Shown here: positions 23,400-29,827 of the stretch, piece after piece
How positions within the stretch are numbered: the first letter of the stretch is position 1
Layout: every line of letters starts with the position of its first letter
From: Fistulifera solaris
Taxonomy: Eukaryota
DNA: 64,000 bases
Reading direction: 5' to 3'
Assembly: GCA_030295235.1 (NCBI GenBank)
Contig: AP026164.1
Span: forward strand, 434,001 to 498,000
The notes under the pieces: model-generated
Databases searched by the model: none
What the model saw: the letters and a program-made list of their open reading frames with translations, nothing else
Told to the model about the DNA's origin: nothing
Made by a program: the position numbers and the translations under genes

Positions 23400-24331
23400 T
23401 TAATCGAGTTCGATTATCAAGTTCCCTCTCGATGGCCCACCTTTGATCGGCATGCCTAGATCTGGTACAGTTATCTTGTTATGCCCCTTACGTTTCTGGA
23501 TTTTCCTTGACCAAAGTGAGCCGTCAAGAAGTGTGATTGTCAAGTGCGAGTCTTTCGGTGGTACTTTGGAGCGATAGATCAAATCATCTCCTTTTCGAAC
23601 AAATTTTGGGTGTTTCTTTTCTTTCACAACAAAGCTAATTTCAGGGAAACGACTTTTGGCAGGAAACGTTATCTTTGTCCCTGCCTTCCATCCCGGCTTC
23701 AATTGAATCTCGTACACCCTAGAGCCGACTCCCGGAAAATTAACTTTTAGCTTCTTCGTTGCCCCAAAAACAGCTCTTCGAGTGAACAGTCTATCGACCG
23801 CTCGTAAGCCTGTTGCTTGAACCGCGTCCCTCTTGAACCTCGACCAGCGAACGTGGACTCGCGGAACATCGACCCTCCCATCATTTGACGTAAAATTTCA
23901 TCGAGTAGAGGGTCGGCACTCATACCACTTGCGGAGTCTCTGCCAAAGGTAAACGGCATTGAGTTGCCGCCAAAGGCGGAGAACTGTGGATTTCCACCTT
24001 GGCGGAAAGCGCTTCCATAGTTCGGTCCTGTCCGTTGTGAAGGGTCCACAGCGGCTTCACCGAACTGATCGTACAATTTTCGTTTCTCCGGATCGGCAAG
24101 GGTCTCATAAGCCTTTGATATTTCTTTAAATTTCTCTTCATCGCCTCCTTTATCTGGATGATACTTCAAGGCAGCCTTTCGATAAGCTTTCTTTATTTCA
24201 TCCGCTGTCGCAGTCTCCGGAACACCAAGAACCTTGTAAGGGGTCGTCGATGACGTATGACGTCGTGCCGCATGGACTGTCGCCGAAATTAGAAAAAAAA
24301 GCAATAAAGAAAGGCGTTTGATTGCTCGCAT
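23400..24331 (-). CDS. DnaJ/Hsp40 class II co-chaperone with signal peptide
   Basis: Signal peptide, J-domain with HPD (KYHPDKGGD), G/F region, CSLEELF, then after one indel at about 23762-23765 [24 protein letters not shown] and GMPIK..RGNLIIE. Confidence 0.9.
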
Positions 24332-24546
24332 GGTGAAACGCGGGATTGTTGTTTATTGGTTAAAAGAGTGGCATGGAATAATATGGCTTTTATTGTTGTT
24401 GTTTTCGTTGAAAAAGGTTTGTATGGATTGAATGGCGATGGCTTAACATTACAATTTACAATGAAGAATGAAGAAGTTCTTGAAGTAGGCAAACAGTTTC
24501 GGTATTTAACTTATACCCGACGTAACGGTACCAAACACTTTGTGCC

Positions 24547-26965
24547 TTATAAATGCGGTTCTTTTGGGGGGTGAAAGTGAAACTCTTCACCCGAAGCGCT
24601 GCTAGTGCTCTTCCGCTCTTCATAGCCTGTAACAACTCCTTTGCCGCTTGCGATGCACTGGGCTCGGTAATCTAAAACACCCGATTTCCAGTTTCCTTCG
24701 TGAAGATACCTCAAGTAATTGTCCAGAAGCTCCGAACCTGCCTTGATGTCGTATATGGTCTTGTCGCCTGCTGTTATAATCCTCATGTTATTGCGGTCAA
24801 TAAAGGGATTGTAAACATGAGTTTCGGTGCTATAGTTTTCCAACTCAGCTGGCATGCGCTCCAGGTCAACAGTCATTTCGGTTGAGATTAGTGGCTTTCC
24901 CTCACCCATCACGCCAGTGCCATTACAACCGTGATTAATGAAAGTCAGTATTCCCGTATCAACTAAGTAGCCAGCTTTTCCAAAGTATTCAAACGCAAAC
25001 CCATAACCGAATAAGTATGTGTAGAAGAGGCTTGAGTATTGTAGAAACTCTGACGAGTCCAAGTATTCGATCATTTTATTCACTAGGGACGTTGTGCTGG
25101 GATAGAAAAGGATATCGTAGACTGATTCGTCCGCGGCAATGAAAGTGCCTTTTGCCACATCCGTTTGAAAAAATATACCCCGTCCGGCCCCGGGTATCCG
25201 ACTGACTCCTACAGCGAACAAGGAAATAGGAGCATTTGGAACGTCGGGGTCAAATCCGTGTCCTTCGTCGCACATGAATGGCTTCTGTGCTTGATTGCAA
25301 AATTCATCTTCCACCAGACGTGACGGAAGTTGATAGGTCATCATAGTCGCATCGTCAAACCAGTACATGATCGGAATATCATTGGATACAGTCTTGATGA
25401 GGCTCCTTTGCATTCTGATATGCAATTCAGCAGCGCTGGTAAACCAGAGTGCCCTTGTTTCTATATTATGGAAACAAGCAATGAAAGATAGACGATCCAA
25501 GTGAACAAACTCTTCGTAGCGCTGAATGGCTTCGAAACCGACTTCAGCCAAGATCCCAAAGATTGTTTGCGCGATGTTACTTCCCAAATCATCATGAGGG
25601 ATAACGAGAACCCCGTTTGTCGACAACATATCCGATATATTGTCAAGTATCTCTTTGGTGATTTCTGGCGAGCTCCAGAGCGAGTGACTACAAAGAAACG
25701 GATCGGCAGATAAGTTACATGATAGCAGTGCAGTGAAAAAGCTTACACCATGACACATAGATCATTTCTTGCACTCCTCACCTTTTTTCAAATATAATAA
25801 CATCAAAGAGATCGTCCGGAGTAGTGTCGCTATCGTCGTCATCGTCGCCTAATAGCCATTCCAAAGCCGTCTCACCTGAAATTAATTCGACTCGTGCATC
25901 ATCGTTGCAATACGGGGTGATACCCTCTAAAAAATTACTGCAGTCGCTATGTTCAGGATATAGCTTCTTATTCACCTGAAAGGTCTCGTCATCAGTTCCG
26001 ATAATGACGACCTTTTCCACCGTCTTGTGCTTCAGGACTTCGCGTAATGTGCCTCCAATCTCCTCTCCGATAATCACGACTCTTTTAGGATCATCATGGG
26101 AGAACATTATGGGGTGAACGAGCGCTTCAAAGTAAATTTGATCGTAATGCTGCTGTAGAATATCGCCATTGACAACTGATCGAGGAGCTGATGCCGGTTT
26201 AAAATGGACACCGTTAGTGTCGGATGAAACTTCAGCGCTGCCCACACTTTTGGTGTCATCTGCCATCGATGAAAGCGATGGCGAGTACGCCATCCAGGTG
26301 AGTTTGCTAGAGTTTCTTTGCTTGAATGACCAGAGCAATGAAGGCTTATTCGAGGTCATTGAAGCACCAAATACCTCGTTTGCAAGCGGCACAACCGAGT
26401 TCCATGGATCGTTAAGCTTGCATAAAACGTTAATTGACAAAATTCCCAATTTCGGCCATGTATACAAGGATATGGTTTCTGATCCAGCATATCCCATGCA
26501 TCTCACGCCTTTGTTTGATGAAGCTCGGTGACATTCGTACATGAAGGCGTCGATGATTCCCAAATTTTTGACGAACGTTAAGAACCCAAACTCGACAGCT
26601 TTCTCGGAGTCAAGAAAGACAGAATCAAGATCTTCCAAATCAACCAGAACTTGTTGCGGGCCTGAAGAAAGTCGTTTTGCATTATTCATCAAATTTTTCT
26701 GTGCGTCCTTACTCGGATTTTCCTCGGCCGCATTACCGGCGTAGAGTTCGCTCAAATAGGTATTCCACTTGATGATCGAAAGACTGGAGTGAGAGGAATC
26801 GGAAAACTTTGAGGGAACGAAGTAAGTCTTGAAAGCTTCACTGACTGCAATCGGCAGATACTCATGATAAGCGGACACCAAAGTCGTCGAGAAGTACCCC
26901 GCCGTGAACGCAAGCAGGCACGGGCCTACCACCGAAGTAATGAGAAGGTATAAAGAAAGATTCAT
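24547..26965 (-). CDS. Fusion of AdoMet decarboxylase-like, spermidine/spermine synthase-like and SET domains (diatom long-chain-polyamine-type fusion); 2 exons
   Basis: N-terminal hydrophobic anchor; QQVLVDL...FLDSE...ISLYTWP (prokaryotic-type AdoMetDC-like); YFEALVHPIMFSHDDPKRVVIIG...TLREVLKHKTVEKV...FDVII (aminopropyltransferase-like); GAGRGIF, FINHGCN and IKAGSELLDNY (SET). A GTGAGG...TAG intron at 25781-25688 joins the two ORFs in frame. Confidence 0.85.
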
Positions 26966-27487
26966 TCTATCACGTTAGCTCAACACCATATCTCTTGTTT
27001 AAAATGCTACAGCATCAGGTTTTTTTCTGTTTGAAAAGGTGCCTTGTAACTTGTAACGCAAGTTCTCATTTCGCGAAAGGATTGCGTCGCACTTTCTCAC
27101 CTTCAACCTCGGAAACGGCGCTAAAATTCTGCGGCAATGTGGACTCTACGTAGTTTTTTTGTACTGGAGGCCGAATTTTAACGTCGTTTCCCCGCAATCT
27201 CAACGCGAAGCCGTTGTGAACACCGAACCGAAGCAGAATACAGAAAAGTGCCATTGGTACACTTTGTATCGGTCTAGCCTCAAATTGGTGTTATAAAAAT
27301 TACTCCCGGTAATACGGAGTAGCACATTACTCTTTGAATACGAAACGCGCACGGTTCTAACTAAGAGCTCAACGGACAGTTTAAAAATTTGTTTCGTTCG
27401 CAATAAGATTTCGATTTCTTTCCCTTTCTAAAACTGTAATTGAATTTATTGATGCTTTTTAATGATAATGAGGAAATCGCATTGACA

Positions 27488-29827
27488 TTAATCATCTTTA
27501 TCTGAAGGCTCAAGATCATCGTAGAAGCGAATGGAGAGAAGTAGCGTTGCGCCGCTGGTGACGGCAAAGCAAACGAACGTTCGATTGAGCAGGTTTTCCA
27601 TTCCCTCCTTCCCAAAGAGAGACAACAAGACGTCGCCCACCGCCCTTCCCGCGGTTCCTGCTTCTGTAGCCAGTAGACCTACGTTAAAGATACCTTGGCT
27701 CCATCGTTTTGGGATTGTCTTTGACAGTAAACTCATGTTCGGACCTTCCAATGCATTCGAACTTACGAACATGACAAACGTCCCGATTGCATATTGCAGA
27801 ACCGAGTACTGCGCTGAATACCTGATCACGACAACACAACCCAAGCACATGCAAAGCTGCATGAGAATAATCAACTCTCGATCATCATACCTTCGAGCCA
27901 AGAGGGAAACTACCAGGTTTGCTGGGAGCATTGATAAGCCCAAGGAGGCAAGATAGACACCGCTGATGCTGCTGTTCCAGTCAAAGTAATACTCCGTCAA
28001 TGTAGCCGACGAACTCAAAACGGCTTCAAGAATAAGTTTAAGAACAAAGTAAATCAAGAAAGTAGTCATGACGGGAATATTGTTCCATATTGGAGCTTCA
28101 TCTTCGAAACTGGAAGCAACAACTCCTTTGGATCGGTCCCTCGACTGAATCAAAGGAGTCTCCTCGTTGTTCGTGCCGACATCCTTTTTTGTGGTTGAAG
28201 TGTTCCTCTTGGGAGGGTCTCGGAACCATACGATTAAAGCAATTAGGTATACTCCCCACACAATCATCATGACCCAGCCTGGTGCATTTTCGGCTTGCCA
28301 GAATCGACTATCAGAGTCGTCGGGGCTGACTGTATTCAAAATCGAGGCGATCAAAGGACCAGCAGCCATTCCCAGTGCCCCAGCCGTAACAAAGGCAGCC
28401 GATGCTGCGGTGCGTTCTTTCCGAGAAAAGCGGTCAGCAATATAGCGTCGGTTAATCGATCGGGCGCTTCCAAAACCATTCATTAGACGCCCAATCATCA
28501 CGATGTGCAAGGAGTCGCACGGCAAGCCCGCGGCGTAAAAGATGTTGCCGACGAAACTGCACGAACTAGCAAAGATCAAAGCATGTTTGTATGAGTGATT
28601 GGTCCACCATGAGAACAAGATAGTCGAAACAAGGGCGGCGACCGGCGTCATACCAATAATCAGGGAAGCCATGGAAGGATCCCCGCCCAGCTTTCGCGCG
28701 TAGCTAGCGGACGTTGGCGCCACAATGTAGTAGTTCGTCATGTACAAAAACGTCGATAGGAGATTGAGAAAGTCCGACATGGGCGTAGCTGCCACGTATT
28801 CGTCCTCTTCTCCTTGCTCTAACATTTGTGGGTATTCGTCGATTAGCAACGTGTTCGCCAACATGCCAACAAAACTACTTGATTCCTCTAGTCTATTTCG
28901 AGCTGCTTGAATACGAAGTAAGATAAGTTCGTTTGATGTTCGCTTGTGTACAAAACTGGGATCCCACAGGAAGGTACGTTGCATTGAGCCTATCGAACTA
29001 GAACTTAGCGCAGTTCCATGGGCGTCCTGTAGTTTCGATGAACACGCTGGCGTCCAGGAAAGGCGCGGGGCTTTTTTCGCTGTTGGACGCGGAATATTGT
29101 GTGGACCCGAAACGATGTCAGCCAGTAATGTAGGATCTGAACTTAAGCGCTGGTGTTGAGGCACTTTGCGAACTGTTTGCGGGACGCTCATCAAAAGCAT
29201 GTCAGCTGTCTGTTGTCGATTCCATGCTAATTCGAGAAAGCCTCCCTCAAGAATTGTTGTCAAGGCACCCAAGGTATGATCTTGTACTAGCAAGGGCTCT
29301 ACCAGACGGCTTCCGCGTAATCGAACCCTGCCACTTCTATTAAGAAAAAATGCCTTCGAAAGTTTGACGGACATGCATTTGTCGTGTTTTTTTAGGATCT
29401 TTCGGATTCCCGTCACATTCAAATCAAGGAACTGTACCAGTCGCAATATTTTCTCTCCTGCCTGCTGATAGCCTTTAAGAATTTCATTGAATTCGTCTTC
29501 TGTCGTCGCAGTATGTGCTCTATGACGACAGGTCAACAACTCCGTCGCAATCCGACCTTGTTCTTGCACAATAAAAAGGAGCATTTTCTCTAGTTGAACG
29601 TGAAACACGCCTAAGAATTCAGCTGTTACAGGATGATGCTTCATAGATGACGTGAAAGGCAGGCTACTAGTCATGGAATAGTCGGCATGTGAATCGCTGT
29701 CCGCATGATTCGAGTAAAGAGAGTCGCGGCTTGATTTTTCGAGGACATCTTTCAACTGCTCGTAGTCCAAGTAATAGGAAACCCACGGGCCGTACTGCTG
29801 ATCCAGTAGTTTTTGACCGAACTTCAT
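27488..29827 (-). CDS. SPX-MFS protein (vacuolar phosphate transporter, VPT/PHT5-like)
   Basis: MKFG...YLDYEQLK and LNVTGIRKILKKHDK (SPX), followed by MFS helices (TFLYMTNYYIVAPT, GRLMNGFGSARSINRRYIAD). Confidence 0.92.
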   Translation of the reverse strand: MKFGQKLLDQQYGPWVSYYLDYEQLKDVLEKSSRDSLYSNHADSDSHADYSMTSSLPFTSSMKHHPVTAEFLGVFHVQLEKMLLFIVQEQGRIATELLTCRHRAHTATTEDEFNEILKGYQQAGEKILRLVQFLDLNVTGIRKILKKHDKCMSVKLSKAFFLNRSGRVRLRGSRLVEPLLVQDHTLGALTTILEGGFLELAWNRQQTADMLLMSVPQTVRKVPQHQRLSSDPTLLADIVSGPHNIPRPTAKKAPRLSWTPACSSKLQDAHGTALSSSSIGSMQRTFLWDPSFVHKRTSNELILLRIQAARNRLEESSSFVGMLANTLLIDEYPQMLEQGEEDEYVAATPMSDFLNLLSTFLYMTNYYIVAPTSASYARKLGGDPSMASLIIGMTPVAALVSTILFSWWTNHSYKHALIFASSCSFVGNIFYAAGLPCDSLHIVMIGRLMNGFGSARSINRRYIADRFSRKERTAASAAFVTAGALGMAAGPLIASILNTVSPDDSDSRFWQAENAPGWVMMIVWGVYLIALIVWFRDPPKRNTSTTKKDVGTNNEETPLIQSRDRSKGVVASSFEDEAPIWNNIPVMTTFLIYFVLKLILEAVLSSSATLTEYYFDWNSSISGVYLASLGLSMLPANLVVSLLARRYDDRELIILMQLCMCLGCVVVIRYSAQYSVLQYAIGTFVMFVSSNALEGPNMSLLSKTIPKRWSQGIFNVGLLATEAGTAGRAVGDVLLSLFGKEGMENLLNRTFVCFAVTSGATLLLSIRFYDDLEPSDKDD

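Follow-up and report, generated by a model that had tools for sequence, protein, structure and literature searches.

A spliced diatom gene for an AdoMetDC-aminopropyltransferase-SET fusion with two apparently inactive polyamine domains and a conserved SET domain

Diatoms encode fusion proteins in which an S-adenosylmethionine decarboxylase (AdoMetDC) is joined to an aminopropyltransferase (APT) and, in some members, to a SET domain, a family described by Michael 2011 (FEBS Lett 585:2627, as cited in PMC3820600, PMC12029483, PMC6356823, PMC4483651 and PMC12803844). We analyzed a 64,000-nucleotide stretch of the Fistulifera solaris genome (GenBank assembly GCA_030295235.1, contig AP026164.1, positions 434,001 to 498,000; hereafter the window, with coordinates counted from its first letter) in which positions 24547-26965 encode a protein of this kind with altered catalytic motifs. 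The locus raises the question of which of the three activities such a protein could still carry out, and what the other domains would be for. We found a single transcribed and spliced gene whose AdoMetDC-like and APT-like domains are both apparently dead and whose SET domain appears intact, a combination that seems to have arisen repeatedly in diatoms.

The span is filled by two abutting minus-strand open reading frames (ORFs) of 395 and 403 codons. Joined across an intron, they form a single minus-strand gene with a 774-amino-acid (aa) product, of which 24547-26965 is the exact coding sequence (CDS) span:

25782..26965, minus strand: CDS exon 1, aa 1-394 plus 2 bases of codon 395; membrane helix, AdoMetDC-like domain and first half of the APT-like domain
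25688..25781, minus strand: intron of 94 nt, GT..AG; if kept in the mRNA, it gives an in-frame TGA immediately after exon 1
24547..25687, minus strand: CDS exon 2, aa 395-774 plus stop; second half of the APT-like domain, linker, SET domain and C-terminal helices

The exon junction reads ...GAAAAAAG / GTGAGG...TTTGTAG / TCAC..., giving the spliced product ...DVIIFEK-S-HSLWSS.... This intron was first predicted from the DNA sequence and then matched by transcript contigs when contigs of four public runs (X1, X2, X3 and X5) were compared with positions 24000-27500. One contig from X2 (depth 344.7) and one from X3 (depth 341.3) run directly from 25687 into 25782, and the stretch they omit has CT..AC at its plus-strand ends; because these contigs skip exactly 25688-25781, the gene is transcribed and its predicted splicing holds. 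Together they cover approximately 24424 to 27026, with the neighboring genes outside them, and beyond exon 1 they reach 27005-27026. No intron-skipping contig was present in X1, where a contig passes through the intron unspliced, or in X5, which has no coverage there. X5, a freshwater metatranscriptome, contributed only two short contigs (24555-24948) with 18 differences in 187 bases and 1 in 225, too little to speak to habitat or expression. The start codon is supported by an in-frame stop 9 nt 5' of the ATG and by the orthologue ORFs P0209, P0210 and P0211, which begin with the same MNLSL/MNISM. A tblastn search of the protein against the 64-kb window matched the gene alone and found no paralogue elsewhere in it.

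The predicted domain order is an N-terminal membrane helix, an AdoMetDC-like fold, an APT-like Rossmann fold and a SET fold. AlphaFold2 was fed family alignments and run as one model per exon. Mean predicted local distance difference test (pLDDT) values were 91.9 for exon 2 and 74 for exon 1, which comprises a helix (aa 5-32), a well-folded region (aa 100-216), a disordered segment (aa 220-269) and a Rossmann half (aa 272-394). For the exon-1 model, Foldseek ranked human spermine synthase 3c6k first (E 4.7e-8), ahead of SpeE structures and Thermotoga maritima AdoMetDC. The domains are placed as follows:

26870..26953, minus strand: N-terminal hydrophobic helix, aa 5-32, from the predicted model, with pLDDT 84-95 in these blocks; likely signal anchor
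26318..26668, minus strand: AdoMetDC-like domain, aa 100-216, degenerate; PF02675 match at E 1.9e-4, pLDDT 88-97 over most of it
25402..26152, minus strand: APT-like Rossmann domain, aa 272-490, interrupted by the intron, degenerate; PF01564 and SpeE fold matches covering both halves
24643..25236, minus strand: SET domain, aa 546-743, with a fold match to SETD8 and three motifs

Full-length homology together with the same domain order and N-terminal helix places the protein among the diatom AdoMetDC-APT-SET fusions. Searches retrieved 62 long diatom homologues with E down to 2e-37, and the best full-length diatom fusion homologue is 30% identical in the first half and 44% in the second. Paralogues carry a basic tail followed by a helix similar to aa 5-32. 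Because the tail before the equivalent helix in these paralogues is basic and cytosolic, we infer that the helix is a type II signal anchor and that the bulk of the protein faces the lumen of the secretory pathway. Several cysteines vary little or not at all across the family (C145, C156, C342 and C353 in exon 1; C130, C139, C254 and C344 in exon-2 numbering) and would fit a disulfide-bonded lumenal protein.

The AdoMetDC-like domain is recognizable mainly by its fold. Pfam AdoMet_dc (PF02675) covered aa 106-201 at 22.2 bits, under the cut-off of 25 (E 1.9e-4), and a phmmer search of PDB sequences returned no AdoMetDC chain at E <= 1. Foldseek matched T. maritima AdoMetDC 1tmi_A with TMt 0.75 and a root-mean-square deviation (rmsd) of 2.8 over 115 columns (E 5.8e-6), and also 1vr7 and 2iii. 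We mapped residues by aligning the AdoMetDC part of the canonical diatom homologue P0006 to T. maritima 1tlu, gap-free, and then through the family and orthologue alignments; the processed enzyme 3iwb is deposited as chains of 62 and 68 residues, with residue 2 of the latter opposite query position 64. From this gap-free P0006/1tlu/3iwb alignment, Ser63 corresponds to the Ser of LLES/H, His68 to the His of FHTWP and Cys83 to the Cys of FTCG; we take these three to be the pyruvoyl precursor, the processing residue and the proton donor, respectively. In the window protein Glu62-Ser63 is replaced by S162-E163, His68 by Y168 and Cys83 by K183:

26453..26491, minus strand: degenerate autoprocessing site YAGSETISLYTWP, aa 159-171, with numbering carried over from the 1tlu/3iwb alignment

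The orthologues have changed at the same positions. Their autoprocessing sites read GYAGTETISLYTWP in P0209, GYAGQDSISVYTWP in P0210 and GYSGHDFISLHTRP in P0211, so that the Glu-Ser cleavage pair becomes T-E, Q-D and H-D. Equivalents of Ser63 and of Cys83 are absent in all three, and the His68 equivalent is Tyr in P0209 and P0210 and kept as His in P0211. Most rows of the alignment with the 62 long homologues show LLESHISFHTWP in these columns and, further along, GGGEGATLREV, IEIDE and DVIIMDALDP in the columns of the APT motifs. As judged from these residues, the AdoMetDC-like domain would have no capacity for self-cleavage or for synthesis of decarboxylated AdoMet (dcAdoMet). A homodimer prediction for two copies of the domain (aa 100-220) gave a score of 0.15 and a mark of 0.32 and weighs neither way.

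The APT-like domain is altered at every cofactor and catalytic motif. Pfam Spermine_synth (PF01564) matched aa 276-361 at 48.3 bits against a cut-off of 22.9, covering profile positions 2-76 of 186 only, and NCBIfam speE equivalogs (TIGR00417, NF002010) scored 46.5-60.5 bits against cut-offs of 249.55-537 (60.5 vs 260; 55.9 vs 249.55). In the exon-2 model, the first ~125 residues resemble E. coli SpeE 3o4f over its C-terminal half (rmsd 2.5-3.0). When phmmer aligned the protein with SpeE of Thermus (1uir, E 3.5e-16), GEEIGGTLREV fell opposite GGGEGATLREV and IGTDDE opposite VDIDGE. Three motifs are changed as follows:

26048..26074, minus strand: degenerate cofactor loop IIGEEIGGT, aa 298-306; canonical I-G-G-G-E-G-A-T
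25988..26002, minus strand: IGTDD, aa 322-326, where the canonical motif is (I/V)-E-I-D-E; Gly323 stands where strand beta2 would end in an acid
25787..25804, minus strand: DVIIFE, aa 388-393, continuing over the splice as KSHS and replacing DVIIMDALDP; Glu393 takes the place of the catalytic Asp, and the second Asp-Pro has disappeared

In the dcAdoMet loop, GGGEG has become GEEIG, which places two acids inside the glycine loop; (V/I)-E-I-D-E has become I-G-T-D-D, with Gly for the beta2-end acid in all four clade members; the adenine-binding D-A before the conserved Trp has become E365-T; and DVIIMDALDP has become DVIIFEKSHS, with F-E again in four of four clade members. The N-terminal beta-domain of SpeE (LDGxxQ / LDGVxQS) is shortened: the alignment there is gapped and reads NGDILQQ, and pLDDT falls below 50 at aa 220-269. 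From the human and T. maritima SpeE structures, we take GGGEG, the beta2 acid, D-A and DxxDP to serve the dcAdoMet amine, the ribose, the adenine and the catalytic base. Because all four cofactor and catalytic motifs are altered, canonical aminopropyl transfer by this domain is very unlikely.

A preliminary description of the locus, made from the sequence alone, had quoted seven motif strings from these domains and read the protein as a membrane-anchored pseudoenzyme scaffold with an active methyltransferase. All seven strings are present in the minus-strand translation of the span, and in the alignments with 1uir and the 62 homologues they lie at homologous catalytic positions. The alignment with paralogues and bacterial SpeD/SpeE that it had proposed as a check likewise located the degenerate residues at catalytic columns.

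The SET domain presents the reverse case, with low similarity to solved proteins and apparently complete motifs. In a search of the exon-2 sequence against PDB chains there were no matches at E <= 10, and Foldseek with the exon-2 model found none in the PDB at E <= 0.001, the best being SETD8 at 1.4e-3. VIA-align of the same model gave Z 8.9 to SETD8 1zkk_A (150 residues aligned, rmsd 4.4); 53 of 1000 chains reached Z >= 8, and all 50 among the matches listed had a SET fold, nearly all of them named lysine methyltransferases. In the protein atlas, residues 130-379 of exon 2 fell among SET clusters (score 0.96). The three motifs are retained:

25177..25191, minus strand: GAGRG (GxG), aa 561-565; G168 and G170 (exon-2 numbering) at least 90% conserved in 80 family sequences
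24925..24936, minus strand: NHGC, aa 646-649; N251, H252, G253 and C254 (exon-2 numbering) at least 90% conserved
24715..24732, minus strand: ELLDNY with the presumed catalytic Tyr, aa 714-719; E319 and Y324 (exon-2 numbering) at least 90% conserved

These correspond to GxG, NHxC and ELxxNY, presumably the AdoMet pocket, the pseudoknot and the motif with the catalytic Tyr. Across exon 2 and 79 relatives, 22 positions are invariant or at least 90% conserved, and the window protein retains the listed residue at all of them. Among cluster representatives, the SET half had 712 relatives at E <= 0.001, and those with a source name or inspected are diatom or diatom-like. As sequence similarity to solved SET proteins is marginal, this appears to be a divergent, diatom-type SET domain; judged by its modeled fold and motifs, it looks intact.

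Conservation among orthologues follows the same division. Exon-1 orthologues are P0209 (79% identity), P0210 (56%) and P0211 (48%), all of which stop at the window intron site and have degenerate motifs; exon-2 orthologues are P0329 and P0330 (88-89%), P0331 (77%), P0332 (74%), P0063 (70%) and P0333 (69%). Halves were joined by equal size of their source contigs, giving pair 8827 (P0210/P0331) and pair 11180 (P0211/P0332), with the following identities to the window protein:

Membrane helix: 70% in pair 8827, 44% in pair 11180
First linker: 34% and 35%
AdoMetDC-like domain: 60% and 49%
Second linker: 44% and 40%
APT-like domain, N / C part: 66 / 64% and 59 / 55%
Pre-SET: 64% and 75%
SET: 88% and 81%

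Against the closest relatives, the SET domain is 94% identical and the dead domains 74-82%, and across all orthologues the ranges are 79-94% for SET versus 49-82% for the dead domains. The latter are predicted to be folded and are more conserved than the linkers. This gradient fits an active, constrained SET domain carried by folded, less constrained, probably structural relics. The cofactor loop is variable, reading GEEIGG in the window and GKGTGA, GNGTGS and GNGTGV in the orthologues, which looks like relaxed constraint and not a kept binding pocket. In a metagenome scan, the single protein found no relative, and the 4-sequence orthologue alignment found 80 loci, all distant (25-53% in the best segment) and none an orthologue.

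Within the transcript data, a variant contig ~8% diverged from the window occurs in X1 and X5. Synonymous and non-synonymous codons numbered 10 vs 2 over aa 722-761 and 7 vs 10 over aa 162-219, in a count of 33 listed differences in 30 codons of one variant contig. The variant covers 24560-24786 and 26309-26480, with 19 differences in 227 bases in X1, where it occurs beside window-identical contigs, and the same variant letters in X5; it may be an allele or second haplotype, a recent paralogue, or a related or sister strain. Separately, the start of P0329 is a read-through of its own intron (MCHVVSFFTALLSCNLSANPF...) that nearly matches the translation of the window intron (25688-25761), so the intron sequence itself is conserved between close relatives.

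We next asked how common this arrangement is in the family. The window protein and 102 retrieved proteins of at least 600 aa were scored for the three motif sets by regular expressions, with the following counts among the 103:

Live AdoMetDC, live APT, no SET: 39
Live AdoMetDC, live APT, SET: 20
Dead AdoMetDC, live APT, no SET: 18
Dead AdoMetDC, dead APT, SET: 17, the window protein included
Dead AdoMetDC, live APT, SET: 7
Live AdoMetDC, dead APT, SET: 1
Live AdoMetDC, dead APT, no SET: 1

Both polyamine motif sets are intact in 59 of the 103. When 45 SET-bearing rows were placed in a maximum-likelihood tree by their pre-SET and SET region, the window protein fell in a supported clade of seven (97/84), in which P0014 scores as live in both domains, P0066, P0081, P0087 and P0048 lack only the AdoMetDC site, and P0077 and the window protein are dead in both. 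Well-supported branches require at least four changes to the doubly dead state. With 17 of 103 members and at least four origins on the SET tree, loss of both polyamine activities with SET kept appears to be recurrent in diatoms and not peculiar to this gene.

Two further observations came from the census. P0007 (Nitzschia inconspicua, 871 aa), the sole SET protein of the 103 with a live AdoMetDC and a dead APT, has an intact processing site (LLESHVSFHTWP) and SET domain and a degenerate APT (LSCGGGAALRE, IEEEK, and DVIILD followed by a deletion). P0149, P0158, P0162, P0167 and P0170 (600-693 aa) form a tight SET clade (100/100) with no AdoMetDC site upstream and only a vestigial APT (D-[VIA]-[VA]-[IF]-L), which looks like an end stage of the same decay.

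Several known systems bear comparison with the window protein. The published diatom fusions, as described in the citing papers, share with it a bacterial-type class 1b AdoMetDC, a bacterial-type APT and a eukaryotic SET domain behind an N-terminal hydrophobic helix; the window protein differs from them, so described, in that its APT is apparently dead too and the N-terminal beta-domain of the APT is eroded. Fusions with a catalytically dead AdoMetDC are reportedly mentioned in the abstract of the 2011 paper. In trypanosomatids, the AdoMetDC prozyme, itself catalytically dead, activates its live paralogue through a heterodimer. Like the prozyme, the window protein would be a catalytically dead polyamine-pathway paralogue kept under selection; unlike it, the dead AdoMetDC domain is of the bacterial class 1b and lies in a fusion, whereas the prozyme is a stand-alone eukaryotic-type AdoMetDC with an activating heterodimer. 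In human spermine synthase, according to PMC12803844, the N-terminal domain is of the class 1b AdoMetDC type but has lost its function, and it is needed for dimer formation; PMC12803844 also cites a related paper on a 'catalytically dead paralog' of deoxyhypusine synthase. Human spermine synthase (3c6k/3c6m) thus shares with the window protein an APT preceded by a dead AdoMetDC-derived domain, although its APT is active and it has neither SET domain nor membrane anchor. The two superpose poorly (rmsd ~13 over 325 columns), so that the likeness is one of domain content and not of arrangement.

Among diatoms, N. inconspicua encodes 32 APT-domain fusion proteins, which a 2025 paper describes as needing study (PMC12803844). 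Nemoto et al. 2020 (Mar Biotechnol 22:551, as cited in PMC11151724 and PMC11554505) described diatom-specific SET methyltransferases that may methylate cell-wall proteins and polyamines; these seven genes, as far as those citations go, share with the window SET a restriction to diatoms. In the open-access full-text literature we found no diatom fusion described as dead in both AdoMetDC and APT, a statement on which the supplements of Michael 2011 and Nemoto 2020 could bear. The fusion family is already in print, and what appears to be new here is the variant with both polyamine domains dead.

Together our results suggest that the gene encodes a signal-anchored secretory-pathway protein derived from a diatom AdoMetDC-APT-SET fusion, in which SET is the only remaining enzyme and the dead domains serve as a scaffold, a reading that we consider probable. 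The N-terminal helix would insert the protein as a signal anchor with its bulk in the lumen. The AdoMetDC-like domain would neither cleave itself nor form a pyruvoyl group, and the APT-like domain would neither hold dcAdoMet in the canonical way nor deprotonate the amine. By analogy with human spermine synthase, the two relics would most likely form a rigid stalk or scaffold, or an oligomerization unit, that places SET at the membrane, where it could move methyl groups from AdoMet to lysine epsilon-amines of silaffin-like cell-wall proteins, to long-chain polyamine nitrogens, or to both. Much of the preliminary description holds up against these data: membership in the fusion family (full-length homology and domain order), the apparently dead polyamine domains (residues replaced in the alignments), the intact SET domain (fold match, motifs and highest conservation), the membrane anchor (predicted helix) and a gene that is expressed and is no decaying pseudogene (spliced transcripts, frame kept in orthologues). 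Its scaffold proposal survives in part, since only SET looks catalytically intact; its suggestion that the degenerate domains bind polyamine chains fares less well, because the DxxDP acids, which presumably hold the polyamine amine in SpeE, are themselves lost, disfavoring binding in the canonical pocket, and the loop is variable.

A number of points weigh against this reading. The SET domain scored 16.5 bits against the Pfam cut-off of 22.4 (PF00856, E 0.012), a family profile searched against PDB sequences returned APT matches and two marginal SET matches (E ~0.002), and the case for an intact SET is one of fold plus three motifs with roles taken from the SET literature. The conservation gradient is one of amino-acid identity and not of the ratio of non-synonymous to synonymous substitution rates (dN/dS), with halves paired by equal contig sizes and the 88-94% pair taken from different assemblies. 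Lumenal orientation is read from paralogues only. The loop is still of GxGxG type in the three exon-1 orthologues (GKGTG / GNGTG), and the APT-like domain of the clade may therefore bind some nucleotide. The census is biased, as one of its two source searches required SET similarity and many dead-APT sequences entered via their SET half, and its regular expressions are crude. Finally, the open-access full-text literature yielded no biochemical characterization of any member of the fusion family.

Other explanations assign the degenerate domains a more specific role. They could act in the manner of a prozyme, forming heterodimers with live AdoMetDC-APT paralogues on the same membrane and either activating them or docking SET onto chain elongation; this overlaps with the scaffold reading, adds a specific partner, and would tie the lengthening of long-chain polyamines to their N-methylation. 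Diatoms indeed have many live paralogues that share the N-terminal helix and the domain order (the 59 of 103 with both motif sets intact), the window SET clade mixes one fully live row with four that are dead in AdoMetDC only and two that are dead in both domains, the dead domains stay folded and are better conserved than linkers, and bacterial class 1 AdoMetDC and SpeE are oligomers. Conservation of 49-82% in the dead domains is nonetheless modest for a specific interface, and we regard such a partnership as rather unlikely. A hetero-oligomeric assembly line built on the same idea strikes us as equally doubtful; here the dead domains would dock with the matching domains of live paralogues in a secretory-pathway or silica deposition vesicle membrane, one subunit elongating the polyamine while this protein N-methylates it or the silaffin lysine that bears it. 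If it were true, the at least four independent losses would represent subfunctionalization of an ancestral all-in-one enzyme into specialized subunits, and the dead/SET subunits that each diatom expresses would determine the species-specific methylation of its long-chain polyamines.

It is less probable still that the APT-like Rossmann domain, having lost the dcAdoMet-specific acid, has been re-purposed to bind AdoMet or another nucleotide, as a second methyltransferase or a ligand sensor. The orthologues do carry a generic GxGxG loop (GKGTG / GNGTG), and the clade shows no variation at Asp325, at Asp388 or in the flanking EALVHP...PKRV and LREVLKHKTVEKVV blocks. Against this, the window loop GEEIGG holds two acids, the loop changes from one orthologue to the next, which points to relaxed constraint, and the beta2-end acid, which binds ribose in class I methyltransferases and SpeE, is Gly in four of four clade members. 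We give almost no credence to a decaying pseudogene or an artifact joining two unrelated ORFs: two Pfam matches do fall under their cut-offs and intron retention would truncate the protein after aa 395, but the frame stays open over all 774 codons, orthologues share the intron site and both halves at identities that go no lower than 48% and 69%, the C-terminal part shows a synonymous excess and the models are confident. As the gene is expressed, spliced in two runs and keeps its reading frame in orthologues, we rejected the pseudogene reading.

The neighbors of the gene lie on the same strand. Downstream, 23747-24331 (minus strand) holds a 194-aa ORF that has a DnaJ (J) domain (PF00226, E 7e-26) and whose N-terminus is hydrophobic, short enough that it may be one exon of a longer gene. 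Upstream, 27488-29827 (minus strand) encodes a 779-aa SPX-domain and major-facilitator transporter (PF03105, E 1.5e-12; PF07690, E 8e-29), a layout that is also that of phosphate-sensing vacuolar transporters. In the intergenic region 5' of the gene (27154-27191), a number of X1 contigs break off at 27157-27160 and 27189-27191, their loose ends being unrelated, and a single base is skipped at 27154, which suggests a repeat or structural polymorphism.

Given that the family and, reportedly, the notion of dead domains in it are already in print and that its function here is one that we infer, we regard the result as an increment and not a surprise. Diatom silica is shaped by long-chain polyamines and by methylated, polyamine-bearing silaffin lysines, and in the open-access literature we found no characterized enzyme of their synthesis. 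If SET is the constrained and probably sole active part of a recurrent subfamily, its members would be clean candidates for the N-methylation step of biosilica chemistry. The apparent repeated conversion of two enzyme domains into folded non-enzymes within one fusion would also make a case of domain-level pseudoenzyme evolution, with a parallel in the dead AdoMetDC domain of animal spermine synthase.

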